This document shows, one piece after another, positions 6,273-61,151 of a DNA stretch of 64,000 nucleotides; position 1 is the first letter of the stretch, and the number at the start of each line of letters is the position of its first letter. The stretch is from positions 317,336 through 381,335 of the IMG/VR virus record IMGVR_UViG_3300009709_000001; one strand, given 5' to 3'. This DNA is from a virus (lineage: Duplodnaviria; Heunggongvirae; Uroviricota; Caudoviricetes). The notes below the pieces were generated by a model. The model did not search any database and was not told the origin of the DNA. It saw only the letters and a list, made by a program, of their open reading frames with translations. A program made the translations under genes and the position numbers.

Positions 6273-6734
6273 TTACGCTAGAACTGGACATAGGATACTA
6301 TAGACCGGTGTCTTCTTTCCGTAGTTATAGAAGTTGTCTTTTGTATTCCCGAATTCTTTTGAATGAATTGGTGCATCTTTATTACTCGGGAACTTCGGGC
6401 CATTGAAATACATCTCATAAACTGCAGACATGATGCCAGTCTTACAGTTCATTACAACACCCTTCATCATGCTCGTGACCATAATTGTCTTACCATCGAC
6501 GTTAATGGTTGTAGGCTTGTCGAGTGTGATTAAAAAGTCGCCGCCCGAAATGACTGTATGGTCAACATAGGTTGCGATTAGTGTTGAAGAATCGAAATAG
6601 AGATGTTCACCATTCTTAGAAACAAGACCGTAAACTTCTTTCCATTCCGGTTCAGGAAAAATGAGACCGGCTGTAGCATAAATGCCGACAACAGCGAGAC
6701 CAAGGCAACATAAGATCTTATTCAGTTTTGACAT
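6273..6734 (-). CDS. secreted or membrane-anchored protein (153 aa)
   Basis: N-terminal hydrophobic segment ILCCLGLAVVGIYATAGLIF. Confidence 0.55.
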   Translation of the reverse strand: MSKLNKILCCLGLAVVGIYATAGLIFPEPEWKEVYGLVSKNGEHLYFDSSTLIATYVDHTVISGGDFLITLDKPTTINVDGKTIMVTSMMKGVVMNCKTGIMSAVYEMYFNGPKFPSNKDAPIHSKEFGNTKDNFYNYGKKTPVYSILCPVLA

Positions 6735-8126: not shown

Positions 8127-8359
8127 TTGATAAATTTATTGAAATATTCGGTTAATGTAAATTTGGTGCTGTCAGCCTTATCATTGATTGAATCAATGAT
8201 CTTCTGCTTTCTCATTGCAGCCTGTTCTTCCTCTAATTCCTTCAACATGGTCTCCTTGAAGATAGGCATTTCGTAATCATAGAAATATTTTGATATCTCA
8301 ATCGACTTCTTAAGACGGATTGTCTCGGAATCAAATACTCGCGGTAATAAGATAATCAC
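8123..8359 (-). CDS. hypothetical protein (78 aa)
   Basis: ORF track; 4-nt overlap downstream. Confidence 0.5.
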   Translation of the reverse strand: MIILLPRVFDSETIRLKKSIEISKYFYDYEMPIFKETMLKELEEEQAAMRKQKIIDSINDKADSTKFTLTEYFNKFIK

Positions 8360-8549
8360 CGTACTTCAACTTTAACCAGACCGCAGCATCTTCCGGGCAG
8401 GTAAAAGTCAATAATGTAAATCCTGTCTTCGTCTTATGAAAAAATGTAGCACTGGTTACAATGCCATCCGAATACAGATCATAACAATCGGCAATGAACG
8501 ATCCATGTACCCTAGAGTTTGTTGGTAATCCGAAATCTTGTGTTATCAT
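8331..8549 (-). CDS. hypothetical protein (72 aa)
   Basis: ORF track; FTCPEDAAVWLKLKY is a weak EEDA-helix match. Confidence 0.5.
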   Translation of the reverse strand: MITQDFGLPTNSRVHGSFIADCYDLYSDGIVTSATFFHKTKTGFTLLTFTCPEDAAVWLKLKYGDYLITASI

Positions 8550-9322
8550 TTTTCTTGTTCTCTAACCAATTGTTCCATGTCGAGAATACGAGTTCGTGTA
8601 TTGCGACTACCTAATAAGATTAGGATACGCTTACCGACAGAGGAATTCATTATCATTACTAGGCATCCACCTGCTGCATTGGTAAAACCAGTCTTTGATA
8701 GGATGATGCTAAATTTCGAAGTAAGTGGATTGGTGTTATGAACACTAATCAACCTGCCTTGCGCCCTAATTTGTGCTGCCGGTAAACTTGACAATTCAGT
8801 AATAACCGAATTATTAGCAGCAACCAACAGCATCTTCAACAGATCCCGAGCAGTGCTTACGTTACCGTAATCAAGGCCTGTGGGTTCATAAAATTTCGTA
8901 TCGTGCATCTCCAACGTTGATGCACGTTCGTTCATCTTCTCTACACAGTTCTCGAGATTCAGGCAAAGAATTTGTGCAGCGAAATTATCAGATCTAACAA
9001 GAGCAAGTGTGAGTAATTCCTTTCGGGTGAGCTGTGTCACCTTACGCGGAATTGTCGAACTTACTTCCCTTGTCTTCAGAATGTTAAGCTCTTCATTTAG
9101 ATCCTGCTCGCTTGCAAGAATACCAATCATTAACTTACTGATTGATGCAATGGATCTAACCTCATTGCCATCCTTCTCGGTAAGGATATTACCGGAGTCA
9201 TCAGCAACAAGGTAGCTCTTCGCACTAAATGTAGGAATAGGTATAGGCTTGGGTTTCTTAGCCGCGTAAGCATTGCCAGTGGCAAGGGCCAGTGTGCAGG
9301 CGATTGTTACCAAGGCTCTCAT
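8546..9322 (-). CDS. secreted D-alanyl-D-alanine carboxy/endopeptidase (peptidase S11, PBP-type)
   Basis: Signal peptide MRALVTIACTLALATGNAYA; SxxK (ASISKLM), SxN (RSDNFAA) and KTG (SKTGFT) in canonical order; start set to ATG 9322 because a promoter lies inside the longer ORF (8546..9346). Confidence 0.8.
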   Translation of the reverse strand: MRALVTIACTLALATGNAYAAKKPKPIPIPTFSAKSYLVADDSGNILTEKDGNEVRSIASISKLMIGILASEQDLNEELNILKTREVSSTIPRKVTQLTRKELLTLALVRSDNFAAQILCLNLENCVEKMNERASTLEMHDTKFYEPTGLDYGNVSTARDLLKMLLVAANNSVITELSSLPAAQIRAQGRLISVHNTNPLTSKFSIILSKTGFTNAAGGCLVMIMNSSVGKRILILLGSRNTRTRILDMEQLVREQEK

Positions 9323-9328
9323 GTTTAT

Positions 9329-9357
9329 AGCATAACACGAGCGCATAGGTTTGTCAA
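9329..9357 (-). promoter_or_regulatory. sigma70-type promoter TTGACA-17-TATGCT, ATG 6 nt after -10
   Basis: Minus strand TAATTGACAaacctatgcgctcgtgtTATGCTataaacATGAGAGCC; -35 directly follows the stop of 9358..9741. Confidence 0.65.
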
Positions 9358-9741
9358 TTAACCCGTAATAAGTCCACTATCTGGTGAGTTCCATAAAGGC
9401 CCAACAGAAACAGGCCCGTATGTCTTCACAGGTGCAGTCATCGTTGTTCCATCATCTAATCTAAAACTTAGGTGACCTGCACGGTTACAGATATCTAGAA
9501 AGTTATCAGTCACCTCAACCATAAATGTTCCTTCTTCCGGAGACAATAAAATGAGTTGACGCATCTTGAACTGTACCGAAGCTGGATTCTTTGGATACCA
9601 GTTAATGGATATAATCCTATCCAGGTCTGTTCCTAATAACCTGAAGTAACTTGGAATGCCGCTTGTGATAACAATGCCGACAAGGCCTGAGCCTTCATAC
9701 GGACTGGAGGGTAATGCCTGGATGCGAGAAATGACTGTCAT
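9358..9741 (-). CDS. hypothetical protein (127 aa)
   Basis: ORF track; 4-nt overlap with upstream gene. Confidence 0.55.
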   Translation of the reverse strand: MTVISRIQALPSSPYEGSGLVGIVITSGIPSYFRLLGTDLDRIISINWYPKNPASVQFKMRQLILLSPEEGTFMVEVTDNFLDICNRAGHLSFRLDDGTTMTAPVKTYGPVSVGPLWNSPDSGLITG

Positions 9742-10706: not shown

Positions 10707-11204
10707 TTATAGGTTGCAGCTCTTATAGAAATCTTGTAGGTTGGTGTTGAAATCCCGGAGATCGAAAACTGTACGGCGGCGAACGTTGTCAGTGCCTGTC
10801 CATTCAAAGCTAATGGTGCGACCAGTTTTCATGGCTTGCATCATCTGCTTTGTAGATAGGAGCGATTTCATCAGCAGGGGACCATTCTGCTCCCAGGGAC
10901 CATGATCAACGATACGACCGTCAACCTTAACCTCTGGCATTTGCGGAATGTTGCCGATAAGTGTGTTCCAATACAGCGCGATTATCGGCTCTGCTGAGTT
11001 GCCCGGTTTTGTAGAGCAAATCATCCTAAGCCCGGTAACGAACTTTTCATTCTTACCGATTTGTGTGCCGGCTGCACTGACGTGATAAATGAATCCCACA
11101 GTTGCCCTGTCCATATCCTTCACTTCGGTAAGAGTCCAGCCCGTTTGTGCTGACGCTGCAAGCGAAGTAATGGAAAGTAGGAGAGCTGCAAAGACTTTTC
11201 TCAC
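10707..11204 (-). CDS. secreted protein (165 aa)
   Basis: GTG start at 11204 with GAGG 8 nt upstream; signal peptide VRKVFAALLLSITSLAASA/QT; own promoter. Confidence 0.6.
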   Translation of the reverse strand: MRKVFAALLLSITSLAASAQTGWTLTEVKDMDRATVGFIYHVSAAGTQIGKNEKFVTGLRMICSTKPGNSAEPIIALYWNTLIGNIPQMPEVKVDGRIVDHGPWEQNGPLLMKSLLSTKQMMQAMKTGRTISFEWTGTDNVRRRTVFDLRDFNTNLQDFYKSCNL

Positions 11205-11228
11205 GATAGAACCTCTGAAATTTGTAAT

Positions 11229-11258
11229 ATTGTAACTTATAATTACCTGTAAAGTCAA
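11229..11258 (-). promoter_or_regulatory. sigma70-type promoter TTGACT-18-TACAAT
   Basis: Minus strand tgTTGACTttacaggtaattataagtTACAATattac, in the divergent AT-rich gap 11205-11296. Confidence 0.65.
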
Positions 11259-11296
11259 CAGCATAAGAATAAATAACAACATACTTATCGAGAATC

Positions 11297-12355: not shown

Positions 12356-12687
12356 CAGTGAAAGCCGAGATATTTCTCAACTAACTCATTAATGTCTCTT
12401 TCGAGTTTTTCGGTATTGATGAATACCTTAATATCTCGCATCTTCTTGAATGTTTCTTCCATCACTTCCCAGTTCGCATCTTTGTTAACTGGAATTGGAT
12501 GGGTCAATTCGCTACCGCTAAGTTCAACAACATTACCATCATAATACTGCACCAAAATGTGTTCGATGTATTTTGCTGGAATTTCTTTAGCATCTACTTC
12601 TTTCACAATCCGGTCAAAGACTGATGGTTTAGCTATTCTGCTAATAGCCTTGTCGAGATTAAAGCTCGTTGTCCTTTTCGATGGCAT
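12352..12687 (-). CDS. hypothetical protein (111 aa)
   Basis: ORF track; 1-nt overlap with upstream GIY-YIG gene. Confidence 0.55.
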   Translation of the reverse strand: MPSKRTTSFNLDKAISRIAKPSVFDRIVKEVDAKEIPAKYIEHILVQYYDGNVVELSGSELTHPIPVNKDANWEVMEETFKKMRDIKVFINTEKLERDINELVEKYLGFHC

Positions 12688-13223
12688 TAAATAATCTCCT
12701 TATTTTTCTTGGCATTTTTATTGCCAATTTTTGCTAGAGATAATTTCTTTCTATGCTCATCGGACATATTCTTGGTCGCTAACGACAATTTGTCTTTTTG
12801 GGCTTGAGACATAGGGGGCCTGGATTTACCGATTAAACTATTAGAAATATTCTTTTTAGTCTCCTCGGATCTTATAGCACCGAGATGTCTTTGAGAAATT
12901 TTTTCCTTCGATTCTCTAGTATGCTTATATCCGGATGTTCCTTCGACGCCGTTGGTAAAATTCCAAAGTGTTCCTGTTTCTAGATCACGACGACCAAAAA
13001 TTGATATTAAACATTCTTCGAGAAAGAATGAATGTTCTTCGTCCAGTGCATTTATAATTTCGATATTGACGGAAAATCCCGAATCTATAATCTTTTGTTT
13101 TCTAGATTCGACATTTTTATTTTTATCGACTTTAAATCTTCTACCTGTCCCCTTACCGACATAGAATGGCTCATTATTTCTTGTCGGATCTCTAAGAATA
13201 TAGGTAAAGAATTTCTTTGCCAT
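12687..13223 (-). CDS. GIY-YIG homing endonuclease (178 aa)
   Basis: FFTYILRDPTRNNEPFYVGKGTGRR; four NUMOD3-like repeats (HTRESKEKIS, RSEETKKNIS, MSQAQKDKLS, MSDEHRKKLS); AT-rich. Confidence 0.8.
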   Translation of the reverse strand: MAKKFFTYILRDPTRNNEPFYVGKGTGRRFKVDKNKNVESRKQKIIDSGFSVNIEIINALDEEHSFFLEECLISIFGRRDLETGTLWNFTNGVEGTSGYKHTRESKEKISQRHLGAIRSEETKKNISNSLIGKSRPPMSQAQKDKLSLATKNMSDEHRKKLSLAKIGNKNAKKNKEII

Positions 13224-14902: not shown

Positions 14903-15439
14903 TTACAAAGAATACAGCAATGCAGTGATTATAGCGGAATCTTTGGCTTTCTGCAAGTCTAACCAATATTTCTTCCAATATAAATCAACTTCTTCGGGAG
15001 TTTTGAATGGCCGTTGTTTATAGGTGGTATTTCTAAGAGCTTCAGCCCTTTTAGCAATATGCTCGGGTGTTTGTTTACGACCGCGATTAGCATTACCTAT
15101 CTTTTTCTTGTGTTGTTCGGATTTTGGCTTGTCTTTGTGAAGTTTTGAGATTTCTTCAGCCACACGATTTCTTAACCATCCGTACATTTTATTCCTTTTT
15201 ACTTTTCCATCTTTGGACATTCTAACCAATGCGAAAATAAGATATGGATGTTCCGGATATATACGAACTAATAACCTATGTGCAAGCCAATGTTCTTCGG
15301 CTGTTAGTTTAACGATATTTTCGGGATCATCTGTGCCACCTATGCATCGTGGAATTATATGATGCTTTTCGCAATATCCGATAATTTCACGTGATTTGGC
15401 ACATTCGATGAGTTTATTGTATGCTTCTTGATATTTCAT
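14903..15439 (-). CDS. HNH homing endonuclease (178 aa)
   Basis: HHIIPRCIGGTDDPENIVKLTAEEHWLAHRLL; N-terminus MKYQEAYNKLIE parallels MDYQKVYNNLIE of the 927 gene, so the start is set to ATG 15439 (track start 15472 is TTG). Confidence 0.8.
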   Translation of the reverse strand: MKYQEAYNKLIECAKSREIIGYCEKHHIIPRCIGGTDDPENIVKLTAEEHWLAHRLLVRIYPEHPYLIFALVRMSKDGKVKRNKMYGWLRNRVAEEISKLHKDKPKSEQHKKKIGNANRGRKQTPEHIAKRAEALRNTTYKQRPFKTPEEVDLYWKKYWLDLQKAKDSAIITALLYSL

Positions 15440-15501
15440 AACTTGAGATAATACCAGTGGATCTACATCCAAGCCGGCAATTTGGTAAATAATCAGTGCT
15501 C

Positions 15502-15696: not shown

Positions 15697-16305
15697 TTAG
15701 TCGGAATCCTTATTACTGGGTTCCCGAAGGCGTTGCCTGGGTACATTCACCACATGGATGAGATGCTCGGGCCAATCCACATAGTATGCCCATTCCGGTT
15801 CACGAATTTGAAGTGGCATCGTTTTCTTCTTTGCCAGTATCTCGTAGTAAGTCGGAACATGCGGCATCTTCTTAGGAACAATCTTTGCATTGTCGCCCTT
15901 GGTGCTGTTACAGTCCTTGCAAGCGGTGCAAATATTTTTCCAGTTGGATTTACCACCCATAGACGCAGGGACTACGTGGTCCAGCGTGAGCTCATTCACT
16001 TTGGCTTTTCCGCGGTTTTCCTTGCAATGCTTAGTGATTTGCAGCTGGCACGTGTAGTCGTCACGCAGGTAAATGTTGCCACGTGAATACTTCACCTTCT
16101 TATCCCATGAAACGTGCTTGACCATCATGACAATAGAAGGTACCTTGATCTCAAGCTTTTGAGACTTGATAACCCAGTCGTCGTATTCCTTAACAACCCT
16201 AACCTTACCATTATAGAGCATGTGCAATGCTCGTGCGGCAGGAATCACTGAGAAAGGACTCAGTGACATCGGTTGGCCGTCGGCATTAAGCAGTAATGTA
16301 TCCAT
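15697..16305 (-). CDS. HNH endonuclease (202 aa, McrA-like core)
   Basis: LTLDHVVPASMGGKSNWKNICTACKDCNSTKG. Confidence 0.75.
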   Translation of the reverse strand: MDTLLLNADGQPMSLSPFSVIPAARALHMLYNGKVRVVKEYDDWVIKSQKLEIKVPSIVMMVKHVSWDKKVKYSRGNIYLRDDYTCQLQITKHCKENRGKAKVNELTLDHVVPASMGGKSNWKNICTACKDCNSTKGDNAKIVPKKMPHVPTYYEILAKKKTMPLQIREPEWAYYVDWPEHLIHVVNVPRQRLREPSNKDSD

Positions 16306-17299: not shown

Positions 17300-17800
17300 T
17301 CAATAGTCGTAAGATCTGTCGGGATCGAAACCGTACTCAAGAACAATTGCAGTACGTTCCGGAGGAGTTAGGCCCCATTTGCCCTCTGCAAAACTGCGGG
17401 CGTTAAGCAACGAAATATTTGCTTTTAGCGCGTGTAAATCTGCAATTTTACGCGAGTTAAGCGCGCTGTAATAATGCCGCGCTATGTTGAGCTCACGCGC
17501 ATTTGCGTTGACCCAAATCGCGGTTGTTGTGTTGGGATTGGCTTTGACATATTCGTTGAGCAGCTCAACTGCATCGCCGTAATACGGTTCTTCGACTCGG
17601 CAAATCTGTGGAGTGTCACCATTGGGCAACTCAACCCAATAACGTGTACCTGAACCACCTGCGCCCAAAGGAATGTTATATTCCTCCGAACGAATGGTCA
17701 GAATCTTGTTCATTTCCAGCTCTGTGAACTTGGGAGTTATGCTTTCCAGCGCAACATCCTCTCTCACGAACAACGGAGCATTTTCAAGGCGTTGTAACAC
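17300..17800 (-). CDS. hypothetical protein (166 aa)
   Basis: ORF track. Confidence 0.55.
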   Translation of the reverse strand: MLQRLENAPLFVREDVALESITPKFTELEMNKILTIRSEEYNIPLGAGGSGTRYWVELPNGDTPQICRVEEPYYGDAVELLNEYVKANPNTTTAIWVNANARELNIARHYYSALNSRKIADLHALKANISLLNARSFAEGKWGLTPPERTAIVLEYGFDPDRSYDY

Positions 17801-18218
17801 TTTTATCCTTGCATTGAAGACCAGTGATATCCGGATACACCTTTACAAACTTGTCATCAGCAATATCACCGATAAACCAAGTATTGTTCGAAGTTTTGTA
17901 GAAGTTGATACCTTCAACAAAGTACCACCCGATCAACTTATCCGGCTCACTGGTATCGTTGAACAACAGGAAGAAGGCACGTTCACGTGCACCGTCAACA
18001 CAGACCTTGGACATACGTGCATACGGTCGCACCATTGCATCGAGCATTTGTTGCGTGGTAGGCTTTTCCACAGGTTCGGCTGCTGGTTGTTCAACTGCCG
18101 ATGCAGCAGCTTCTACCTTGGCCACTTCCTTAGGCTTATCATCAGAGCAGCCGCTCATAGCGGCAGTCACCAATGCAACATTGAGTGCGGTAAGGATGAT
18201 TGTTTTTAACGGCTTCAT
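17784..18218 (-). CDS. lipoprotein (144 aa)
   Basis: Trimmed to MKPLKTIILTALNVALVTAAMSGC (lipobox-like AMSGC). Confidence 0.6.
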   Translation of the reverse strand: MKPLKTIILTALNVALVTAAMSGCSDDKPKEVAKVEAAASAVEQPAAEPVEKPTTQQMLDAMVRPYARMSKVCVDGARERAFFLLFNDTSEPDKLIGWYFVEGINFYKTSNNTWFIGDIADDKFVKVYPDITGLQCKDKSVTTP

Positions 18219-18230
18219 ATATCTCGTAAG

Positions 18231-18252
18231 AATGGGGCATTTCTGCCCCATT
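18231..18252 (-). terminator. 9-bp hairpin after VWA gene (weak T tract)
   Basis: aatggggca-tttc-tgccccatt, 4 nt downstream of the stop of 18257..19456. Confidence 0.45.
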
Positions 18253-24128: not shown

Positions 24129-24881
24129 ATGCAAGAATTTAAACCAACATGGTTATACATAAAGAAACACAATATCACTGGTTTACAATATTTCGGTAAA
24201 ACAAATAGATATCATCCCGAGAAATATATAGGGTCTGGAAAATACTGGCTAGCGCATTTAAGGGTGCATGGAAAAGATATATCAACAACATGGTGTGAAC
24301 TATTCTTCGACCAGCAAACATTGGTAGAATATGCGCTTAAATTTTCAAAAGAAAATAATATAGCCGAATCAAGTGAATGGGCCAATCTTAAGTTTGAAAA
24401 CGGTCTTGATGGAGGTCACAGTGGCGTGGCAAGGAGCGATGAGACAAAGGAAAAATTATCTAAGAAAAATAGAGGAAAACGACATACAAAGGAAACCAAA
24501 AATAAAATTTCAGATTCCAATAAAGGTAAACATAACATGGTAAGACCTGCAGATGTCGGAGCCAAAATTTCGAAAGCACTGACCGGTAAAAAACGAGGTC
24601 CAATGCCAGATGAAACAAAAAGAAAAATTGGTGATGCAAATAAAGGAAAACCTTCATCAAAGAAGGGTATACCAATGCCAGATGAAACAAAAAGAAAAAT
24701 TGGTGATGCAAATAAAGGAAAACCTTCATCAAAGAAGGGTATACCTAGGTCAGCTATTGATAAAGATAAAATCAGAAAAGGCCAAGAAAATGTACCCGAA
24801 ATAACTTGCCCACACTGTCATATTTCAAATAAACCCGGATGTATGAAAAGATGGCACTTTGATAATTGTAAAAAGAAATAA
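24129..24881 (+). CDS. GIY-YIG-type (Seg-like) homing endonuclease (250 aa)
   Basis: WLYIKKHNITGLQYFGKTN; NUMOD3-like repeats (RSDETKEKLS, HTKETKNKIS, PMPDETKRKIG x2); C-terminal CPHC...KRWHFDNC zinc finger; AGGAGA RBS. Confidence 0.75.
   Translation: MQEFKPTWLYIKKHNITGLQYFGKTNRYHPEKYIGSGKYWLAHLRVHGKDISTTWCELFFDQQTLVEYALKFSKENNIAESSEWANLKFENGLDGGHSGVARSDETKEKLSKKNRGKRHTKETKNKISDSNKGKHNMVRPADVGAKISKALTGKKRGPMPDETKRKIGDANKGKPSSKKGIPMPDETKRKIGDANKGKPSSKKGIPRSAIDKDKIRKGQENVPEITCPHCHISNKPGCMKRWHFDNCKKK
24600..24744. repeat. perfect 72-bp tandem duplication (2 copies) inside the endonuclease gene
   Basis: caatgccagatgaaacaaaaagaaaaattggtgatgcaaataaaggaaaaccttcatcaaagaagggtatac at 24601-24672 and 24673-24744; duplicates 24 aa PMPDETKRKIGDANKGKPSSKKGI. 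Confidence 0.95.
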
Positions 24882-24921: not shown

Positions 24922-25545
24922 TTAGAAGAACAAGCCGCCGAATGCAATGCAGATAATCGTCAGGACGAGCATGACCCAGAAGCCAAGCCATTCGCCGTCG
25001 GTTTTGAGGTCGCCAAAGCTCTTCGGGATGCGAATCAGCTTCGTGCCCTTGAAGAATCCACCCAGGTACGAATATTCCACCTTCTCGTAACGGGCAGTGA
25101 ACAGGCGCTTGTAGATCACACGCACCATCGTCAGGCCCACCGTCAAGAAGATCACACCGTAGAGTGCCTTCATCAGCGCTGCACCAGCGACCTTCCAGAT
25201 GATGATCAGTGCGGTCAGCTTACCCGCGTCAGACTTGAGGAAGTCATTTATCGTGACATTCAGTTCCTTGGCTGCGATGCCCATGGCCTTGGCAAAGCCT
25301 TCGGCTGCGGCAGCGGCCTGTTGGCCCCAGGTTGCAGCGAGTGTCATTGTGGCACCCACATCCTTGGCGGGCGCAGCAGCATCGGCGACACCCTTGGCCT
25401 GTTGTGCGACGATCTGGGCAGCGTGTGCCTTCAGGTCTGCGATCTGGGCATCGGACAGACCCGATGTATCGATATTCGTGCTAGCCGCGAAAGAGGTTGC
25501 GGCGCACAGTGCGAGTGCCATACCGGCGATCATTTTGCGAAACAT
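24922..25545 (-). CDS. membrane protein with signal peptide (207 aa), GC-rich
   Basis: MFRKMIAGMALALCAATSFAAS; C-terminal TMs (LTALIIIWKVAGAALM, GVIFLTVGLTMV, LGFWVMLVLTIICIAFGGLFF); AAGGA RBS. Confidence 0.65.
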   Translation of the reverse strand: MFRKMIAGMALALCAATSFAASTNIDTSGLSDAQIADLKAHAAQIVAQQAKGVADAAAPAKDVGATMTLAATWGQQAAAAAEGFAKAMGIAAKELNVTINDFLKSDAGKLTALIIIWKVAGAALMKALYGVIFLTVGLTMVRVIYKRLFTARYEKVEYSYLGGFFKGTKLIRIPKSFGDLKTDGEWLGFWVMLVLTIICIAFGGLFF

Positions 25546-25583
25546 GGTTTTCCTTTCAGAACAAAGTTTTAACTGACAAATGC

Positions 25584-25613
25584 ATTATAGGGCCACCAGG
25601 GCCCTATAGTCAA
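25584..25613 (-). promoter_or_regulatory. sigma70-type promoter TTGACT-18-TATAAT whose spacer is a 9-bp hairpin
   Basis: Minus strand cagTTGACTatagggccctggtggcccTATAATgcatttg; tatagggcc/ggccctata stem spans the spacer and -10. Confidence 0.65.
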
Positions 25614-25641
25614 CTGAGTTTTACGTCAATTGGAACTGGTT

Positions 25642-26820
25642 TTACCAGTCGCTGCTGCCGGAATCGCTGCTGGAGCTGCTGCCGGAGTCGGACGAACCCC
25701 AGCTGCTGCCGCTGTCGCTGCTCGAACTGGACCAGCTGCTGGAACGGCTGCTGCTGTCGTCATCGTCACGGCTGGACGAATAGCTCGGAGCAGGGGCCGG
25801 CGCGTAGTACGGTGCAGGGGCGGGAGCCGGTTCCGGGGCAGAGCTGGAGCTGAACTCGGAAGTACCACCCCACTCGGCGTCGTCCTTGGCCGAGCTGCTG
25901 AAGGTCGGTGCAGGTGCCGTGATCACGGGCGGGGTGTACGTCGAAGCACTCGAACTGTAGTCACTGGTGCCCGAGGATTCCTCGCGGCGTCGACGAGTCA
26001 CAGTGTCATCATCATGACGATGACGGAGCGCATCGCTGATCATGTTGCCAGCAACCACACCACCTGCCACTGCCACACCCGTTTCCAGAGCCGACGGACC
26101 GGTATGGACCACGGTCGGAGGAACATAGGTGGGTGCCGGAGGAGCCGTATAGGTGCGCGACGGACGGGACCATGCAGCCGGGCTCGGTGCCGGAGGCGTC
26201 GAATAGGTGCTGCGAGTGGTACCCATACCGCTACTGGCCGTGGTCACAGAGGAGGGAGCCGAGGTAGCGGTTGCAGTCACAGGACTGGAGAAGTCGACGC
26301 CACCGTCTTCAGACTTGGTCCGGCGATACCAGTAGTAGCCCAGGCCACCCAGCGTGAACAGGAACAGCAGAACCAGGAACTTGGAACCGAACGAGCTGCC
26401 TTCATCGGCCGGCTTCGTTACCGCCACGGGTTGTGCCTGCACTTGAGGTGCAGCTTGGACGACCACGGGAGGAGGGGGCGGCACATAGGCCTGGACCACC
26501 GGCTGACGGGCGCCGGCGATGTCGCGTTCCATCTTGGCGAACAGGCGCGAACCGAGCACGTCACCCTTGTGATCGTATGCGCGGACGGCGTCCAGTTCAC
26601 GCTGGGCGAGATTGGGGTCTCGTTCCAGACACATGATCGTTGCCGCATTCAGCAGGTGAGCGCGAGCGCTATCCGGGCGCGACACCAGGATCTCATTCAC
26701 GTAATTGCGCGCTTGGGCGCAGTTGCCGTTTTCCAGGGCGGATTCGACCTGCTTCGGACTGGGGAGGGCCATTGCGGTCGCAGACAGCAAGGCAAGGGAA
26801 AGGGACAGAATACGCTTCAT
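25642..26820 (-). CDS. signal peptide + helical-repeat (TPR-like) domain + TM + Ser/Pro/Thr-rich tail (392 aa), GC-rich
   Basis: MKRILSLSLALLSATAMA; TM FLVLLFLFTLGGLGYYWY; tail ends SSSSDSGSSDW; AAGGAG 6 nt before ATG. Confidence 0.65.
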   Translation of the reverse strand: MKRILSLSLALLSATAMALPSPKQVESALENGNCAQARNYVNEILVSRPDSARAHLLNAATIMCLERDPNLAQRELDAVRAYDHKGDVLGSRLFAKMERDIAGARQPVVQAYVPPPPPVVVQAAPQVQAQPVAVTKPADEGSSFGSKFLVLLFLFTLGGLGYYWYRRTKSEDGGVDFSSPVTATATSAPSSVTTASSGMGTTRSTYSTPPAPSPAAWSRPSRTYTAPPAPTYVPPTVVHTGPSALETGVAVAGGVVAGNMISDALRHRHDDDTVTRRRREESSGTSDYSSSASTYTPPVITAPAPTFSSSAKDDAEWGGTSEFSSSSAPEPAPAPAPYYAPAPAPSYSSSRDDDDSSSRSSSWSSSSSDSGSSWGSSDSGSSSSSDSGSSDW

Positions 26821-26838
26821 GTGTAGCTCCTTGGGGGT

Positions 26839-26865
26839 GAAAACTGGGGCCCCGAAGGGCCCCAG
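26839..26865 (-). terminator. rho-independent terminator
   Basis: Minus strand ctggggccc-ttcg-gggccccag followed by ttttc, 3 nt after the stop of 26869..27966. Confidence 0.8.
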
Positions 26866-26868
26866 GGG

Positions 26869-27966
26869 TCAGATTGCAGCCATCCAGTCGTAGTTGGCGC
26901 GGCCGTACACCTCACGGGTGAACACCACGACCGTCTGCGCCGGCGTACCTTCGTCGACCACGTAAGTGAACGTACCCGCTTCCGGTTCGATGCGCTTCAG
27001 GTGCTTCGGATTCAGCTCCAGGGTGAAGCTGTCGTCCTTGTCTTCCGGGCAGCCGGCCGACTCGCCAACGCTGATGTTCAGCTCTTCGCTGGCCACCGGG
27101 CTTCCGCGCCACGTGTCGGGGTAGATGCGGTTGGTGTCGATCGCCTTGCCTTCGCGGATGATGCTGACCTTGTGGCGCATGCTGCTGTCGGCGAACGGTT
27201 TCGCGTTGAGCAGTTCCAGCACTTGGTGCGGCGTCTCGTTGTAGCGGTTCATGTCTTCGACCAGCGCCTTCAGCATGTCGAAGTTGAAGCTTTCGTACAG
27301 CATGGCCAGACGGCAGATCGTCGGGATGTGCGTCTTGTCGTTGAGGCGATCGTTGCAGTATTCTTCGATGAACGCTGCGTCGATGCCCTTGTACTCCAGG
27401 CAGTAGAAGACACGACCCGGCCGATTGCGCATGTGGCTGTTGACGCGGTACTTGTCGTTGCAGGTCAGGATGAACAGCTTCTTGCTCGGGAACACGCCGT
27501 CGAGCAGGGTCAGGATAGCTTCCTGTTCCTTTTCGCCGAACACCTTCTCGAACTCGTCGAACACGACCACGCACGGCTGGTTGATGTTCTGAATGAAGGC
27601 GTTGAAGCCGTCACCGCAGAAGTCGCTGTTGATGACCAGGACGGGCATGTTGTGCGCTTCAACCGCGTTCTTGGCGATGAGCTTGGCCAACATCGTCTTG
27701 CCCGAACCCTTTTCGCCGGTCAGCAGCACACCAGTGCTGTTCGGGCGATCGAGGAAGGTGCTCATGATGCGATCAGCACGGCCGTGGATGTTGCCGTAGA
27801 TCTTGCCGTCGATGTTGAAGTTGTTGATGGGCTTCAAGAAGAAGCCTCGGCCCGGCATTGCACCGACCGTGTACGTGCCCGGGGGCAGCGTCTCGTGCAT
27901 GTCGAGCGCCGCTTTCGGGGTGGGGAAAAACAAGCCGCCTTCGCGGGAGAAAATGGTGCTACTCAT
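26869..27966 (-). CDS. AAA+ ATPase (365 aa), GC-rich
   Basis: Walker A LLTGEKGSGKT, Walker B VVVFDEFEK. Confidence 0.8.
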   Translation of the reverse strand: MSSTIFSREGGLFFPTPKAALDMHETLPPGTYTVGAMPGRGFFLKPINNFNIDGKIYGNIHGRADRIMSTFLDRPNSTGVLLTGEKGSGKTMLAKLIAKNAVEAHNMPVLVINSDFCGDGFNAFIQNINQPCVVVFDEFEKVFGEKEQEAILTLLDGVFPSKKLFILTCNDKYRVNSHMRNRPGRVFYCLEYKGIDAAFIEEYCNDRLNDKTHIPTICRLAMLYESFNFDMLKALVEDMNRYNETPHQVLELLNAKPFADSSMRHKVSIIREGKAIDTNRIYPDTWRGSPVASEELNISVGESAGCPEDKDDSFTLELNPKHLKRIEPEAGTFTYVVDEGTPAQTVVVFTREVYGRANYDWMAAI

Positions 27967-28021
27967 CGCTTCTTTCTTGGTTGCGGGATAAATCCCTGGT
28001 TAAATTTGTTTAACAGTCTCT

Positions 28022-28364: not shown

Positions 28365-29192
28365 ATGAATACTCCATTTCTAAATAACAAATATACTGCC
28401 CGATATTATAAAATTATTAATACCGTTTTAGAATTAAATCGAAAGAAATTAAAAAGAAATAACCCTGATTACAGGTATTATGAATTGCATCATATTATTC
28501 CCAAATCATTAGGTGGTGACAATTCTTCTGCAAATCTTATACCTTTGACACCAAGGGAACATTATATATGCCACCTTTTACTCACCCGAATGACTGAAGG
28601 TAAAAATAGATATAAGATGCTCTGTGCATTCAACAGAATAACAAATAGAGGCCAGGCAGAAATTAAAAATTCTAGATTATATAATTCTATTCGAGAAGAC
28701 TTTTCGAAATCGCAGGCCGAAAATTATAAAGGTGATAAAAATCATTTTTATGGAAAGACTCACACAAAAGAAATCAGAGATTATTTAGCTGAGGTATGTC
28801 CACGATTCGGTAAAGATAATGGCAATTTTGGTAAATCATTATCTCAATCACAAAAAGATGCAATTTCGAAAAGTAATAAATCCAGAAAAATTATACCTCC
28901 ACCTCCGCAACTCGGTTCAAAAAATCATTTTTCTAAGATTTATAAAATAATCGACCCAACCGGTAATAAATTTACAATAAAATGCATGAGTGAATTTTGT
29001 GAAAGAAACAATCTTTGTAGTCGAACAATGATTTTATTTAAGGACAAAGGAAAAATTCCTGAATTGCAATTCGAACGAGAATATCGTGTAAAGAATCTCC
29101 AAGCAAAGAAGAACTGTGAAGGTTATTCTATTATTTCAATGACCTCGCCCCTTGGTCCTTTTCCATCAATCGACCATACAGTTACCGGATAA
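28365..29192 (+). CDS. HNH homing endonuclease (275 aa)
   Basis: LHHIIPKSLGGDNSSANLIPLTPREHYICHLLL; a 70-nt sample at the 5' end is 23% G+C by hand count; 3' end overlaps the macro-domain gene by 70 nt (convergent). Confidence 0.8.
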   Translation: MNTPFLNNKYTARYYKIINTVLELNRKKLKRNNPDYRYYELHHIIPKSLGGDNSSANLIPLTPREHYICHLLLTRMTEGKNRYKMLCAFNRITNRGQAEIKNSRLYNSIREDFSKSQAENYKGDKNHFYGKTHTKEIRDYLAEVCPRFGKDNGNFGKSLSQSQKDAISKSNKSRKIIPPPPQLGSKNHFSKIYKIIDPTGNKFTIKCMSEFCERNNLCSRTMILFKDKGKIPELQFEREYRVKNLQAKKNCEGYSIISMTSPLGPFPSIDHTVTG

Positions 29193-35618: not shown

Positions 35619-36884
35619 TTAGCCCTTGACACATAACACCTGCTTCAAGGTGTGTACAACCTTGACCAAGTCAGTTTGGCTGAGCATCACATCGTCAATG
35701 GACTTATAGGCTGCCGGACTTTCGTCAATCATGCCTTCGTCCTTACGGCATTCCACACCTGCAGTGGCCGCCACGTGTTCTTCAACCGTAATTTCCTTCT
35801 TTGCTTTGGAACGGCTCATCTTGCGTCCTGCACCATGGCTGCATGAGCAGAAGCTTTCAACATTACCCAGGCCTTCAACGATGAAGCTCTTTGCACCCAT
35901 CGAGCCCGGGATGATGCCCAACTCACCAGCTTGTGCGCTTACCGCGCCCTTACGAGTAACGATCACGTTTTCACCAAAGTGAACTTCTTCGTTGATGTAG
36001 TTGTGGTGGCAATTGATAGCTTCCTTCGTGATCTTGAAGACAGGAAGATGACGAGTCAGCGCCGTAATAACCAGTTCCAACATTGCGTCACGGTTGCGAC
36101 GTGCGTATTCCTGCGCCCAGCTCATTGCCTCGACATAATCGTCGTAATGTTGGCTACCTTCCTGCAAGTAAGCCAGATCCTTGTTCGGAAGAACAATCTT
36201 CTGTTCTTCAGCGTCTTTCTGTGCCAGCTCGATAAAGTAACGACCGATTGCATTACCAATGCCGCGAGAACCACTGTGGAGCATAATCCACACATCGTTG
36301 TTTTCATCGATGCACAGTTCGATGAAGTGATTGCCTCCGCCCAACGAACCGAGCTGAGTACGCGCCTTCTTTTCAGCGTCCTTGACCATCTTGTCGATGC
36401 CAGGATGCTTTGCAACGATTGCTTCCAGGCCAGTCTTCAGATTCTTGAACTGGTTGTTCAGAACGGTGCGTGTATTTTGATGACCCTTGCCATTCAAACG
36501 GTCGGTACTGTGTTCGTCGAACCCAACAGGCACCATCAATTCGATTTCGGAACGAACCTTGTGCAGATTGTCCGGAAGCTGATCAGCAGTCAAGCTGGTA
36601 CGACATGCAATCATGCCGCAACCAATATCAACGCCAACAGCCGCAGGAATTACAGTGCCGTGCGTTGCAAGCACCGTACCAACAGTAGAACCAGTACCAA
36701 CGTGTACGTCCGGCATCGCAGCCACGTGCTTAAATACAAAAGGCAGTTTGGTAATGCTGCGAAGTTGATCGATCGCGCCGGATTCGACGGGGACGTGCTT
36801 AGTCCACATTTTCACATCAACAAGGTCTCCTCGAATTAAATTATATGGGAGATATTTCTCATCATTAATATCTTCTTGCATCAT
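35619..36884 (-). CDS. rtcB: RtcB RNA 3'-phosphate ligase (421 aa)
   Basis: HSGSRGIGN, CHHNY and CSCSHGAGR motifs; full length. Confidence 0.95.
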   Translation of the reverse strand: MMQEDINDEKYLPYNLIRGDLVDVKMWTKHVPVESGAIDQLRSITKLPFVFKHVAAMPDVHVGTGSTVGTVLATHGTVIPAAVGVDIGCGMIACRTSLTADQLPDNLHKVRSEIELMVPVGFDEHSTDRLNGKGHQNTRTVLNNQFKNLKTGLEAIVAKHPGIDKMVKDAEKKARTQLGSLGGGNHFIELCIDENNDVWIMLHSGSRGIGNAIGRYFIELAQKDAEEQKIVLPNKDLAYLQEGSQHYDDYVEAMSWAQEYARRNRDAMLELVITALTRHLPVFKITKEAINCHHNYINEEVHFGENVIVTRKGAVSAQAGELGIIPGSMGAKSFIVEGLGNVESFCSCSHGAGRKMSRSKAKKEITVEEHVAATAGVECRKDEGMIDESPAAYKSIDDVMLSQTDLVKVVHTLKQVLCVKG

Positions 36885-37558
36885 TTTTCCTTACAATTAT
36901 CGAAATGCCATCTTTTCATTTGGCTATTACCGCCAATTTTACCACAATATGGGCACTCAATTTTTATACGAGGAACTCTCATTTTTATTTTTTGTTCCTC
37001 GCTCATTGGTCTATTTTTACTAAATGGTTCTCTACCTTTGTTAGCCAAAGAAATTTTATTTTTCGTTTCTTGAGTTGTAATATGCCCCTTCAGGGAATTG
37101 GATCGTTTTATATTTTCTTCTATTGAAGGTTTTCTACCGGGTACACCTTTCTTAGATTTCGAAATTTTTTCTTTTGTAGAGGCTAAACACGGGCCGGTAC
37201 TCTTTCCAATTTTTGCTACAGACATTTTGGACTTGGCGGCTTCAGAATGTTTTCTTCCACCCGGACCTTCGCCGCCATCTGTTAGATTAAGCAACGGACC
37301 TTTACCGAGATCTTTTCTTCCAAATTTAGAAATAAGTTCTTCCTCAATTAAGTGCGCCAGTTCTTCATCGAGGCCAGAATAAATACCAATAATCGGAATA
37401 ATTTGGTTTCTTTCCATTAATTTTAATCGTTGTATTAATGGATGTTTTCCTTTTCTCTTTAAATGACTCCATGCACGACTATCTCTGCCTTTACCGACAT
37501 ATATCGGTTCATTATTTCGAGAAGGATCGTAGTAGATATAGGTGTAATAATTATTCAT
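36881..37558 (-). CDS. GIY-YIG homing endonuclease (225 aa)
   Basis: YYTYIYYDPSRNNEPIYVGKGRDSRAWSH; NUMOD3-like repeats; C-terminal CPYC...KRWHFDNC zinc finger; stop overlaps the rtcB ATG (ATGA). Confidence 0.8.
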   Translation of the reverse strand: MNNYYTYIYYDPSRNNEPIYVGKGRDSRAWSHLKRKGKHPLIQRLKLMERNQIIPIIGIYSGLDEELAHLIEEELISKFGRKDLGKGPLLNLTDGGEGPGGRKHSEAAKSKMSVAKIGKSTGPCLASTKEKISKSKKGVPGRKPSIEENIKRSNSLKGHITTQETKNKISLANKGREPFSKNRPMSEEQKIKMRVPRIKIECPYCGKIGGNSQMKRWHFDNCKEK

Positions 37559-58199: not shown

Positions 58200-61151
58200 T
58201 CAAAACGCGCTGAAGTCGAATAATGTTTCAAGGTGTGCGTGTTCTTTATTAGTTCTCGAAAGATCCCAATTCAAAACACCTAGAAGATTCTTAACCTTCT
58301 GATCGACAATCGAACCCATCATTTCATCACTGTCAAATGGGAGGTTCAAGAACCAATCTGGTAAATGGGCTTCATCAACCGGATATGCAATGCTACTCAA
58401 ATTGTTTTCGGCATTGATCTTGAGTTTACAAACAATAATCTTCTGTCCGTCAATAATCCTCATTGCATGCTGGTCACGATGAATTTCTTTCAATCGATTC
58501 CACGCAAGGCTTGCTGTAACGTGTCCTGGTACATGCAAGTTACCGACTGTAATACCTTTTGCTTTCTGAATACCTGCAAGTTCAATCTTATCACGATAGT
58601 GAGTTAGCTTGTTAACTGCTCGCGGAGTTCCTTGTTTCCAAGGCTTCAAATCTTCAAACTGTTCTTTAAACAGGCGAATTTTCTCAATAACGGCATTTTC
58701 GCCCTTGTCTAGTAGAGTATCAAGTAAGATCTCAGACAAGAATTTTTGCACGAATTTAGGTGTATCTGCACGCTTCAAATCGAGACCCATAGCCTTGACT
58801 TTACCCGGCTTTCCGTCGACATCATATCTAATGCCGTCCTTATCGTACATCAAGCAAGCATATCTCTTCTTAACAATCCAAATACCTGTTTCGGACACAG
58901 TTTCACGAGACGATGCAATAACACCAGTCGAACGCTTTTGTGGCACATTCAATTTCTTGTTCAAGAACTCGGGGAATGTAGCAGAAACTGCTTTTGCCAA
59001 ATCATTGTAAAGATCGACAATGCTTTCCTTTGTCCACATAATATCACCACGTGCAATTTCTTCACGTAGAATTGGATATGCAGAGAAATAGCACGAGTCC
59101 GTATCACCATAAACAATTGCCTTGCCGTAATGATTATATTCACCAGCAATCATTTCATTTGTCTGAGCTGCCATGTGCTTCGTGATTGTACGACCAGTAA
59201 GCGTTGTGGATTGTCCTAGACGTTGATCGAAGAATCGACTACCTGCATTCAACAAAGCGCCGTATGCCGAGTTCAAGTTAATCTTCTTAACGAGCTGACG
59301 TTTGTCCCAGAAGCCAACAATACGCTTCAAATCCTTTTGATCGCGATGAATTGCTTTACCGTCCTTGACCATAAGGTTGTGTTGATTCATGTACTGAACA
59401 ACTCTCTTCTTATGACCTTCGGCGATAATTTCCTTCAGTTTCTTCGGCTTGTACGATTCCGATTCTGAATAGGGATTAGCCTTCAATTCTACATCACTGA
59501 TATCATCATTTGTGAACAATTCTGCCGGAACTAGAGTACCTTCAATTTTGGAGTTATCCTGAATGTCTTCATAGTTGGTCATAATACCTTGAAGCGTCTT
59601 ACGCTCGGTATACCAACGTGTCAGAATTCCCGGAATAATACCGTCAATATCTGTTCTAAAGATTGTACCGTTTGCACTGATACACCATGGCTGTCCACTC
59701 TTGAAAATCAAGTCATGCAATTCCTTGCCAGTGACTTCAAATTCAGAGCCGTCTTCCATATCAAGAGTTAGCTTATTGGCAATATCTTGATTATAAAAGT
59801 CTTCCATTTCTAGAACGTTGAATCTATCGTTCCACCAGTTAGCGAATGTGTATTTCGCACCTTTCTTTTCCCAAATGCCGATTGCATCGTTTGTACGATC
59901 TAGACGAATCTGTCCAACAATTGTTTCTGGACTCATATTCAGTGCTCTAAGAACCGACGGATACAGAGACTTCATGTCAGTTGAACCAATCCAGCGATGG
60001 AATCCCTTTCTTGGAGTTGCAACCCAGCCACCTGCAGCACGATTTGCTTCTTCGTCGCTACCACGCTTCTTATCTGGACAGATAAGTCCGCGATTGTGTG
60101 CTTCGACAAGTACAGCCTGGTCAGTAACTGCAACCGCACCCATTGTGGTCTGAATTAGAACACAGTTGGCATGTGCAATCGAATTTGCAAGATCCATGAA
60201 CTGGAGCTTCTTATCTAATCGATCAAGAAGTCGCGTATCCTGGATGTTATACTGTAAGAACTGCTCAAAGTCGTCATTGTAGAGTTCGTCAAGCGTACCT
60301 TCGTATTGTACCTTAGTTTCGTTAAGTTCAATTTCCGAGATAGCATTCAACGCATAACTATGTCTTTCTTCATAGTTGTATTTCTTGTAAAGCTGAAGAT
60401 AATCAACGTGAACACGACCAATAAGGTCGTAAGTTGGTTGAGTCTTGCCGCCGCGTTCAAATTCACGAACTTTAGGTTGCTGGTCCCACAGACAAAGTCT
60501 GCGAGCTTCATGCTTACCAAGAACACGCTTGATACGATTTACAACATAAGGAATATCGTATGCTTCACTATTCCATCCACTAAGAATGTCTGCATCTTCG
60601 ACAACGTCAATGAATGCATTAAGCATGTCTGCTTCGTTCTTGAATAGAACTACATTACCTACCTTATTTGCAATTTCATTAGCTTCATCCCAGGTCAATG
60701 TCTCTGGTGGCAATGCCAAGCAGATAATTTCATCTAGCCATTGCAGATGAACAGAAATTGAAGTGATGTAATTTAGTGCTTCGCTTGCTTCTGACCAGCC
60801 CGACTCTTTATCAAAGCTGGTTTCAATGTCGAAGAATGCAATGTTAAGGGAAGGAGCATCTTGCCCCTGATAATTGTGTTCAATACAGCGGAAGATTGGA
60901 TCTACATCCGATTCCCATGTTTTCGTATTGCTTGCCACAGTTTTCATTAGCTTCTGCTTTTCAGCATAGGTGCGTGGCGCTACCTTTTTTACGGAATTAC
61001 CGTAGATGGTCTTATTAAGACCCTTCGGGTCATTAATGAAGAAGTGATAGTCAGGTTGGAATTCCCGGTAAACTCTCTTACCGTTAACACGTTCAACAAT
61101 TTTGATTACTTCGCTATCACCGCCTCTTTTGAACAAGGCGTCAATATACAT
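58200..61151 (-). CDS. family B DNA polymerase (T4 gp43-like, 983 aa)
   Basis: Exo I FFDIETS, Exo II WNSEAYDIPY, Exo III YNIQDTRLL, motif A DMKSLYPS, motif B KINLNSAYG, motif C YGDTDS; uninterrupted. Confidence 0.97.
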   Translation of the reverse strand: MYIDALFKRGGDSEVIKIVERVNGKRVYREFQPDYHFFINDPKGLNKTIYGNSVKKVAPRTYAEKQKLMKTVASNTKTWESDVDPIFRCIEHNYQGQDAPSLNIAFFDIETSFDKESGWSEASEALNYITSISVHLQWLDEIICLALPPETLTWDEANEIANKVGNVVLFKNEADMLNAFIDVVEDADILSGWNSEAYDIPYVVNRIKRVLGKHEARRLCLWDQQPKVREFERGGKTQPTYDLIGRVHVDYLQLYKKYNYEERHSYALNAISEIELNETKVQYEGTLDELYNDDFEQFLQYNIQDTRLLDRLDKKLQFMDLANSIAHANCVLIQTTMGAVAVTDQAVLVEAHNRGLICPDKKRGSDEEANRAAGGWVATPRKGFHRWIGSTDMKSLYPSVLRALNMSPETIVGQIRLDRTNDAIGIWEKKGAKYTFANWWNDRFNVLEMEDFYNQDIANKLTLDMEDGSEFEVTGKELHDLIFKSGQPWCISANGTIFRTDIDGIIPGILTRWYTERKTLQGIMTNYEDIQDNSKIEGTLVPAELFTNDDISDVELKANPYSESESYKPKKLKEIIAEGHKKRVVQYMNQHNLMVKDGKAIHRDQKDLKRIVGFWDKRQLVKKINLNSAYGALLNAGSRFFDQRLGQSTTLTGRTITKHMAAQTNEMIAGEYNHYGKAIVYGDTDSCYFSAYPILREEIARGDIMWTKESIVDLYNDLAKAVSATFPEFLNKKLNVPQKRSTGVIASSRETVSETGIWIVKKRYACLMYDKDGIRYDVDGKPGKVKAMGLDLKRADTPKFVQKFLSEILLDTLLDKGENAVIEKIRLFKEQFEDLKPWKQGTPRAVNKLTHYRDKIELAGIQKAKGITVGNLHVPGHVTASLAWNRLKEIHRDQHAMRIIDGQKIIVCKLKINAENNLSSIAYPVDEAHLPDWFLNLPFDSDEMMGSIVDQKVKNLLGVLNWDLSRTNKEHAHLETLFDFSAF

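Follow-up and report, generated by a model that had tools for sequence, protein, structure and literature searches.

Phages are known to attack the wall of their hosts at two points, namely, at entry with virion lysins and at exit with endolysins. Some endolysins, such as Lys44 of Oenococcus phage fOg44 and Lyz of phage P1, are Sec-exported or signal-arrest-release (SAR) proteins that reach the wall via the host Sec system and not through holin holes; these enzymes are muramidases or amidases, are encoded in lysis cassettes, and are expressed late. The lytic enzyme P5 of phage phi6 is reported to cut the D-Ala-mDAP (meso-diaminopimelic acid) cross-bridge of Gram-negative peptidoglycan; it is unrelated to the S11 peptidases in fold and family, is virion associated, serves in entry and lysis, and carries no signal peptide. 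Enzymes of the penicillin-binding type were earlier regarded as housekeeping enzymes of the host. For the early use of such an enzyme by an invader, the nearest functional parallel is Bdellovibrio bacteriovorus, whose DD-endopeptidases Bd0816 and Bd3459 are of the PBP4 type (DacB/PBP4-like) and not of the S11 PBP7 type. DD-endopeptidases of this predator are secreted into the prey periplasm, where the wall is de-crosslinked, the cell is rounded, and the entry of a second predator is blocked (PMC3276566, PMC4686830). In the present study, we analyzed a 64-kb stretch of a jumbo-phage contig (positions 317,336 to 381,335 of IMG/VR record IMGVR_UViG_3300009709_000001; 64,000 nucleotides [nt], referred to here as the window), which encodes on its minus strand, at 8546..9322, a predicted secreted DD-peptidase of family S11 that resembles PBP7/PbpG. 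Our preferred reading, to which we assign a probability of about 0.55, is that this enzyme remodels the host wall from the periplasm during infection and does not perform the terminal lysis step; the gene would thus suggest a third use of wall-cutting enzymes by phages. The molecular identity of the gene product is much more secure than this role. The S11 enzyme family is well understood, and what is new concerns how the enzyme is put to use biologically and not how it works: the gene represents a distinct viral subfamily that is conserved across uncultured large phages, shows features specific to viruses, and is preceded by a host-type expression signal predicted to give a leaderless transcript. 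The coding sequence and the features within it are as follows.

8546..9322, minus strand: coding sequence of the S11 (PBP7-like) DD-peptidase precursor, 258 amino acids (aa), stop codon included
9263..9322, minus strand: predicted Sec signal peptide MRALVTIACTLALATGNAYA (codons 1 to 20), read from the sequence with a rule-based test
9134..9145, minus strand: SxxK motif S60-I-S-K63, with the nucleophile serine and the general-base lysine, aligned with the PBP7 catalytic residues
8984..8992, minus strand: SxN motif S111-D-N113, from homolog alignments
8945..8965, minus strand: cysteine pair C120...C126, flanking an inter-helix loop and conserved specifically in viruses
8687..8695, minus strand: KTG motif K210-T-G212, from homolog alignments

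The open reading frame (ORF), which runs from an ATG at 9322 to a stop codon at 8546, would give a mature protein of about 238 aa (26.2 kDa; computed pI, 9.1). Its match to Pfam Peptidase_S11 (PF00768) extended over residues 30 to 238 with a score of 114.6 bits (cutoff, 27.6; E value, 6.7e-33), far enough above the cutoff to exclude a chance match. Among the NCBIfam subfamily models, the PbpG model (NF008668) ranked first with 120.7 bits, and profile positions 21 to 272 of 316 were covered by the alignment; the DacA, DacD, and PBP4 models gave at most 41 bits. Since the PbpG model was the best by far, a DD-endopeptidase is likelier than a DD-carboxypeptidase. The best sequence matches in the PDB were the PBP7-type murein DD-endopeptidases of Yersinia enterocolitica (6muq; E value, 1.7e-26) and Enterobacter cloacae (6azi; E value, 2.4e-25), in which IASISKLM was paired with IASITKLM, SDN with SEN, and KTGFTNAAG with KTGFTNQAG or KTGFTNAAG. 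An AlphaFold2 model built from the homolog alignment (mean pLDDT, 95.4; pTM, 0.87) retrieved the same two structures first in a Foldseek search of the PDB (6azi, E value of 6.6e-22; 6muq, E value of 3.7e-21; TM score, 0.79), and all of the top 50 matches were S11 DD-peptidases. Like these PBP7/PbpG enzymes, to which it is about 32% identical, the phage protein combines the S11 fold with a single domain and the same motifs. In the model, the chain forms one catalytic domain and ends in a single helix after the last strand; the C-terminal beta-domain and membrane anchor of PBP5-type enzymes are absent according to both the model and the profile alignment.

The residues S60, K63, S111, N113, K210, and G212 were invariant in an alignment of 112 sequences, and all seven motif residues were invariant in a larger set of 70 viral and 80 bacterial homologs. 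The first-pass annotation had described, from the letters alone, a penicillin-binding-type D,D-peptidase with a complete SxxK/SxN/KTG triad, and had named a catalytic serine or lysine lost on alignment as evidence to the contrary. Both residues (S60 and K63) are conserved throughout, and the family and the triad stand; the general label of an S11 low-molecular-weight penicillin-binding protein (PBP) can be refined to PBP7/PbpG-like. Judged from its sequence, the gene product is an intact PBP7/PbpG-like member of S11 but not a PbpG orthologue.

The viral proteins differ from bacterial PbpG next to the motifs. Position 112 is D in 70 of 70 viral copies versus E in 78 of 80 bacterial sequences, position 114 is F or L in the viral clade versus R in 79 of 80, position 216 is P or A versus E in 77 of 80, and position 219 is G versus R or K in 65 of 80. 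The context after SxN is accordingly SDN-F/L in viruses versus SEN-R in cellular PbpG, and that after KTG is KTG-x-x-N-P/A-A/S-G-G versus KTG-x-x-x-E-A-G-R/K. This PbpG flanking signature, which was derived here from the 80 cellular sequences and not taken from the literature, was not found in the viral clade. The window protein itself has SDN-F, lacks equivalents of E216 and R/K219, and, unlike PbpG, possesses the extra cysteine pair. C120 was present in 61 of the 70 viral but in 1 of the 80 bacterial sequences, and C126 in 69 and 4, respectively; in the AlphaFold2 model, the two residues lie on either side of the loop that connects helices 113-121 and 126-136 and would probably form a disulfide in the periplasm. 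The viral proteins are also shorter (median of 257 aa, versus 340 aa in the nearest cellular PbpGs), their signal peptide being joined almost directly to the catalytic domain, and they have no C-terminal tail. Compared with the nearest betaproteobacterial PbpGs, the window protein is about 80 aa shorter, with no N-terminal linker and a shorter C terminus. It further departs from PbpG in being phage encoded and, as described below, in being expressed from a transcript predicted to be leaderless.

An N-terminal signal peptide, a feature and a predicted periplasmic location that it would share with PBP7/PbpG, is apparent in the phage protein. The N terminus, MRALVTIACTLALATGNAYA followed by AKK, is composed of an n-region, an h-region, and an AxA site, with signal peptidase I cleavage predicted after A18-Y19-A20 (i.e., M-R, then ALVTIACTLALATG, then N-A-Y-A ahead of the next alanine). 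A rule-based test, which considers hydrophobicity, charge, and the (-3,-1) residues and is not a dedicated predictor, was passed by 65 of the 70 viral homologs; the remaining five either reflect start codons miscalled in our crude ORF extension or have an n-region without K or R. The cleavable signal peptide reported in the first-pass annotation is thus recovered in the relatives as well, and the protein is predicted to be exported to the periplasm via Sec. A lipoprotein reading based on Cys9 was rejected, given that this cysteine follows just 8 residues, that T-I-A-C does not qualify as a lipobox, and that AxA sites are found instead in the homologs.

The gene appears to be expressed from a promoter of its own, located between the coding sequence and an upstream ORF. 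The features on either side of the coding sequence are the following.

9329..9357, minus strand: sigma70-type promoter, from a consensus scan and its conservation in related loci
9358..9741, minus strand: conserved 127-aa ORF upstream, the stop codon of which abuts the -35 hexamer
8331..8549, minus strand: 72-aa ORF downstream with no Pfam match, the ATG of which overlaps the S11 stop codon (ATGA)

The promoter consists of a -35 hexamer TTGACA (9357-9352), a 17-nt spacer with TG ahead of the -10 hexamer, and the -10 hexamer TATGCT (9334-9329), which is separated from the ATG at 9322 by 6 nt. Promoter-like matches in the region were not above chance (12 found; 9.4 expected from shuffled sequence), so the support for this one comes from comparison with related loci. 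About 26 of 30 non-redundant upstream regions from the close clade contained a sigma70-type promoter, and about 24 of the 30 shared the arrangement TTGAC(A/T/C)-N17-TAnnnT, then 5 to 7 nt (mostly 6), then ATG. The spacers and flanks varied freely among the 30 loci, and the same layout was found in some loci of a sister clade at 40% identity. The claim of an own promoter is in this way supported by its conservation at a fixed distance from the start codon.

Given a distance of only 6 nt from the -10 hexamer to the start codon, the first transcribed nucleotide would be expected to be the A of the ATG or one adjacent to it, and the S11 mRNA should, from this predicted start site, be leaderless. 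No Shine-Dalgarno sequence was present at the S11 gene; 37 of the 102 crude window ORFs have one (AAGGA type). An in-frame ATG at 9346 (266 aa, i.e., 8 additional residues) was considered as the start codon and rejected, since it lies inside the promoter spacer, which makes 9322 the better start; it also has no counterpart in homologs. The consensus -35 hexamer points to the host primary sigma factor and, by analogy with T4, suggests early transcription. The conserved promoter, the leaderless start, and the signal peptide would together make up a compact expression module. Downstream, the ATGA overlap makes co-expression with the 72-aa ORF probable, and this ORF, which has a weak homolog in locus L008, is probably co-transcribed and translationally coupled with the S11 gene. 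The 127-aa upstream ORF is a neighbor in many, but not all, related loci.

Two other ORFs of the window, starting at 5394 (minus strand, 114 aa) and 41638 (minus strand, 152 aa), are preceded by TTGAC-N17-TATAAT followed by 5 to 6 nt and the ATG; the ends of the two promoters are at about 5400 and 41645, respectively. Exact matches to TTGACA-N17-TAnnnT occurred four times in the window (0.87 expected), all on the minus strand, which carries most genes. These patterns suggest that several genes of this phage are transcribed without a leader. In L013, an ENA contig with an S11 relative at 45% identity, a sigma70-family sigma factor of 297 aa with Sigma70_r2 and r4 domains (L013:9274-10167) is encoded three genes downstream of S11, with an IS605-type OrfB/TnpB gene upstream; this sigma factor bears on the question of which polymerase holoenzyme reads the conserved promoter.

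The gene is embedded in a phage genome, as had been assumed in the first-pass annotation. The window is part of a 385,394-bp jumbo-phage contig from JGI and encodes a T4-type DNA polymerase (58200-61151; 983 aa) that is 40 to 43% identical to those of Phosso, Atu_ph07, Vibrio phage 2.275.O, and RaK2, as well as RtcB, an exonuclease, AAA ATPases, a DUF2201 protein, and a metallophosphatase. The surroundings of the S11 gene are a replication, nucleotide-metabolism, and homing-endonuclease region. When the region was compared with isolate phages at the nucleotide level, no match was obtained, indicating that there is no close cultured relative.

Relatives of the protein were abundant among uncultured viruses. 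Proteins of 250 to 275 aa that are 56 to 72% identical to the window protein were recovered as more than 120 clusters (clustering at 90% identity), many of them on contigs of 200 to 390 kb, and when IMG/VR was scanned with the family alignment, relatives were encoded in at least 533 stretches. The position of the S11 gene was syntenic in contigs of 326 to 359 kb and in fragments of 15 to 89 kb. In three large contigs and in the 45%-identity relative, the gene order was AAA ATPase, DUF2201, HNH, an opposite-strand 350-aa gene, small genes, and S11; in locus L008, 19 genes were collinear with the window. The related phages that keep this syntenic position have S11 proteins at 45 to 72% identity.

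Cellular homologs were more distant. In 185,579 species-representative genomes searched with the family alignment, the closest proteins (34 to 41% identity) were long-form PbpGs, mostly from Betaproteobacteria; a single-protein search of the species-representative genomes returned nothing. Neither a host gene nor a copy in a prophage was detected in these genomes, in which cellular PbpGs reached at most 41% identity, and Betaproteobacteria would be a weak guess as to the host. In a neighbor-joining tree of the catalytic domain, the 70 viral sequences grouped together in a single clade, from which the 80 cellular sequences were separate. The tree was midpoint rooted, contained the best sequences of each kind (70 viral and 80 cellular, a sampling biased toward the query), and had no bootstrap, so the separation of the viral clade from cellular PbpG is provisional. 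Between close viral pairs, dN/dS was 0.04 to 0.19, which by this sequence measure indicates that the viral S11 gene is under strong purifying selection. The first-pass annotation had described such PBPs as host housekeeping enzymes and suggested a phylogeny with host pbpG-type genes; in that phylogeny, the viral copies stand apart, and the gene, by sequence comparison, belongs to an old viral clade and was not recently copied from a housekeeping gene of the host.

No member of the viral S11 clade was found among the records of the isolate-phage collection searched. The best tblastn matches there (34% identity) were records labelled 'Acinetobacter phage MD-2021a', and these were rejected as evidence of phage carriage because the one inspected, H1, is a fragment of a bacterial chromosome; the remaining matches (faecal contigs and Listeria 'phage' contigs) did not exceed 35% identity. 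INPHARED record CAKLQH020000023.1, which bears the Acinetobacter phage label but is an ordinary stretch of bacterial chromosome, encodes gpmI, atoSC, pbpG, cysM, metL, dsbC, xerD, and feoB; the match in CAKLQF020000026.1 is nearly identical to the one in CAKLQH020000023.1, and this record is presumably likewise mislabelled. S11-fold proteins of viral origin are already recorded in PHROG and UniProt, through automatic annotation only: the window protein matched PHROG 5304 ('peptidase'; E value, 5e-19), which is a longer, DacA-like profile of 386 positions, and BFVD entries (E value, 4e-21; TM score, 0.83) named 'DacC D-alanyl-D-alanine carboxypeptidase [uncultured Caudovirales phage]' (A0A6J5TBF9 and others), the best of which is about 31% identical to it. 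We found no functional study of a phage PBP7 or S11 enzyme in the literature, and two broad jumbo-phage reviews mention none. Since the gene is widespread, has no member of its clade among the isolate-phage records searched, and is treated in no study that we found, it appears to serve an important but uncharacterized purpose in large phages that are known from uncultured sequences.

The sister clade, whose S11 proteins are 40 to 46% identical to that of the window (IMG/VR loci L049-L093), has a gene of about 680 aa with CHASE2 and adenylate/guanylate cyclase domains directly upstream of S11 or within 3 kb of it. This pairing was seen in 33 loci, where the two genes often abut as if they formed one operon (e.g., the cyclase at L050:891-2939, plus strand, followed by S11 at about L050:2947-3690). 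The cyclase matched Pfam CHASE2 (E value, 1.6e-38) and Guanylate_cyc (E value, 5e-15) and phrog_35576. Other neighbors in the sister clade encode radical SAM, DUF4337, fatty-acid desaturase, Hsp70, and dCMP deaminase proteins. No CHASE2-cyclase was found in the 64-kb window.

From these features, the following course of events can be proposed. Host RNA polymerase would transcribe the S11 gene from the sigma70 promoter, most likely early in infection, into a leaderless mRNA. The signal peptide would route the precursor through Sec, and the 26-kDa basic enzyme would fold in the periplasm, probably with the C120-C126 disulfide. Through an acyl-enzyme mechanism at Ser60, it would attack D-Ala-containing peptide bonds of the host sacculus, most likely the D-Ala-mDAP 4-3 cross-link (i.e., as a DD-endopeptidase), and the wall of the infected cell would be expected to become softer and to hold fewer cross-links. 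Possible uses include making room for cell enlargement in a jumbo-phage burst, priming the wall for lysis, and marking the cell as occupied so that competitors are excluded. We infer the export, the bond specificity, the timing, and the biological role.

The first-pass annotation had likewise favored remodelling over a classical lysin, with entry, exclusion of competitors, and preparation for lysis as candidate purposes. The consensus -35 promoter and the lack of lysis neighbors in the loci examined agree with remodelling, but the role in entry is unlikely, because a protein that carries a Sec signal peptide and is synthesized after genome injection would be expected in the periplasm and not packed in virions. 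Exclusion of competitors and preparation for lysis are possible purposes, for which the promoter type, the gene neighborhood, and the Bdellovibrio analogy speak. As with Bd0816 and Bd3459, an invader would place a penicillin-binding-type DD-endopeptidase in a Gram-negative periplasm; unlike them, which are secreted from outside by a cellular predator, the phage enzyme would be made by the ribosomes of its victim. No ankyrin-type self-protection partner was found next to the phage gene.

Several points weigh against wall remodelling by a DD-endopeptidase. Export, activity, and timing are all predictions, and our view covers 64 of 385 kb, in which the lysis genes of the phage were not located. 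A sigma70-type promoter is no proof of early-only expression; T4 lysozyme is also transcribed early. The 120.7 bits scored with the PbpG model fall short of its equivalog cutoff of 294, and this score, together with the changed motif-flanking residues, makes the protein PBP7-like and not an orthologue, so that its bond specificity may differ from that of PBP7. Single-domain S11 proteins also include DD-carboxypeptidases (Lmo2812 and Rv2911) and the transpeptidase K15, all of which appear as good structural matches to the model. Finally, uncontrolled cutting of cross-links early in infection could harm the host too soon, which would call for control of dose or activity; as a speculation, low translation of the leaderless mRNA might supply such control.

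A Sec-exported accessory endolysin is an unlikely alternative. The protein does belong to a peptidoglycan hydrolase family and has a signal peptide, secreted endolysins exist (Lys44 and the SAR endolysins), and the lysis cassette of the phage was not seen in the window, which leaves room for joint action with it. No holin, endolysin, or spanin families were detected, however, among the scanned ORFs of the window (64 of 385 kb; small ORFs were mostly outside the scan) or among 143 neighboring ORFs in about 36 distant viral loci. The S11 gene differs from Sec-exported and SAR endolysins in encoding a serine peptidase and in lying in a replication/early-type region behind a consensus -35 promoter, which is not of the T4 late type. 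To our knowledge, S11 is not among the catalytic classes of endolysins, in line with the earlier placement of the enzyme outside these classes, and E. coli PBP7 at native levels does not lyse cells alone. Related phages, moreover, encode a separate Hydrolase_2 (SleB-type) wall hydrolase 8 to 10 kb downstream of S11 (L008:18378-18998, L010:18727-19125, and L012:20507 to the end of the locus), which is a candidate endolysin of these jumbo phages. No counterpart was found in the window by tblastn; the gene probably lies beyond the window edge, perhaps just past position 1.

About equally doubtful is a DD-carboxypeptidase, or an enzyme of otherwise altered specificity, that trims pentapeptide stems or cleaves a different D-Ala bond, thereby depriving the transpeptidases of the host of their donors. 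Wall growth and division would then be stopped, or the chemistry of the wall would be changed for the lysins of competing phages. The close structural matches to Lmo2812/PBPD2 and Rv2911, both single-domain S11 DD-carboxypeptidases, speak for such an activity, and the loss in the viral clade of the charged residues R114, E216, and R/K219 near the active site suggests a shifted substrate preference. Against this, sequence and fold are clearly closest to the PBP7 endopeptidases, and no carboxypeptidase-specific feature was identified.

The protein might also be a moron that binds or hydrolyzes beta-lactams and shields the infected host from those in the environment, an explanation that we regard as highly improbable. 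SDN is the class A beta-lactamase version of SxN, and the 258-aa protein also matched Pfam Beta-lactamase2, albeit at 43 bits versus the far higher 114.6 bits of the S11 model; no NCBIfam beta-lactamase model was matched, the best structures were all DD-peptidases, and a lytic jumbo phage would gain little from protecting its host in this way. Least credible of all is a passenger or artefact without a phage role (i.e., a recently acquired bacterial pbpG or a misbinned contig), which is already contradicted by the position of the gene among phage genes on a 385-kb contig, its synteny in relatives at 45 to 72% identity, the single viral clade whose closest cellular homolog is 41% identical, and the low dN/dS values, although H1 of 'Acinetobacter phage MD-2021a' shows that mislabelled bacterial fragments do occur.

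Periplasmic remodelling during infection can also be put in a bolder form, which we consider improbable as a whole: the enzymes of the ancient, virus-specific clade would reprogram the host wall early in infections by aquatic large and jumbo phages, being made within minutes from a leaderless mRNA and de-crosslinking the sacculus, either to mark the cell as occupied and block superinfection in the manner of Bdellovibrio or to enlarge the cell for a jumbo-phage burst, and those of the sister clade would be coupled to the CHASE2 cyclase as a sensor of the periplasm.

The first-pass annotation had listed further exported proteins in the window, and these candidates were judged by eye. The minus-strand ORF at 17784-18251 has a lipobox-like AAMSG followed by C after a hydrophobic stretch, and the minus-strand ORFs at 24922-25545 and 25642-26820 have signal-peptide-like N termini. 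The minus-strand ORF at 10707-11282 has a signal-like MRKVFAALLLSITSLAASA ahead of Q if an internal GTG is the start, and that at 6273-6734 (minus strand) begins with a segment that resembles a membrane or signal anchor. ORFs 17784-18251, 10707-11282, and 6273-6734 had no Pfam match.

Seven HNH/NUMOD3 genes were present in the 64 kb (927-1637, 12687-13223, 14903-15472, 15697-16305, 24129-24881, 28365-29192, and 36881-37558), an unusually high density of homing-endonuclease-like genes, and several of the seven are missing from the syntenic locus L008. Two of them, 24129-24881 (NUMOD3) and 28365-29192 (HNH), bracket a 3-kb island at 25000-28000 with a GC content of 0.54 to 0.66, versus about 0.41 in the rest of the window and 0.30 to 0.38 in the flanks. 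A search of the island against plasmids gave no match, and the island is uninformative regarding the host. It contains the two minus-strand ORFs with signal-peptide-like N termini and an AAA ATPase gene (26869-27966), part of which is 72% identical at the nucleotide level to the AAA-ATPase gene of Microbacterium phage Pumpernickel, and it looks like a recent acquisition.

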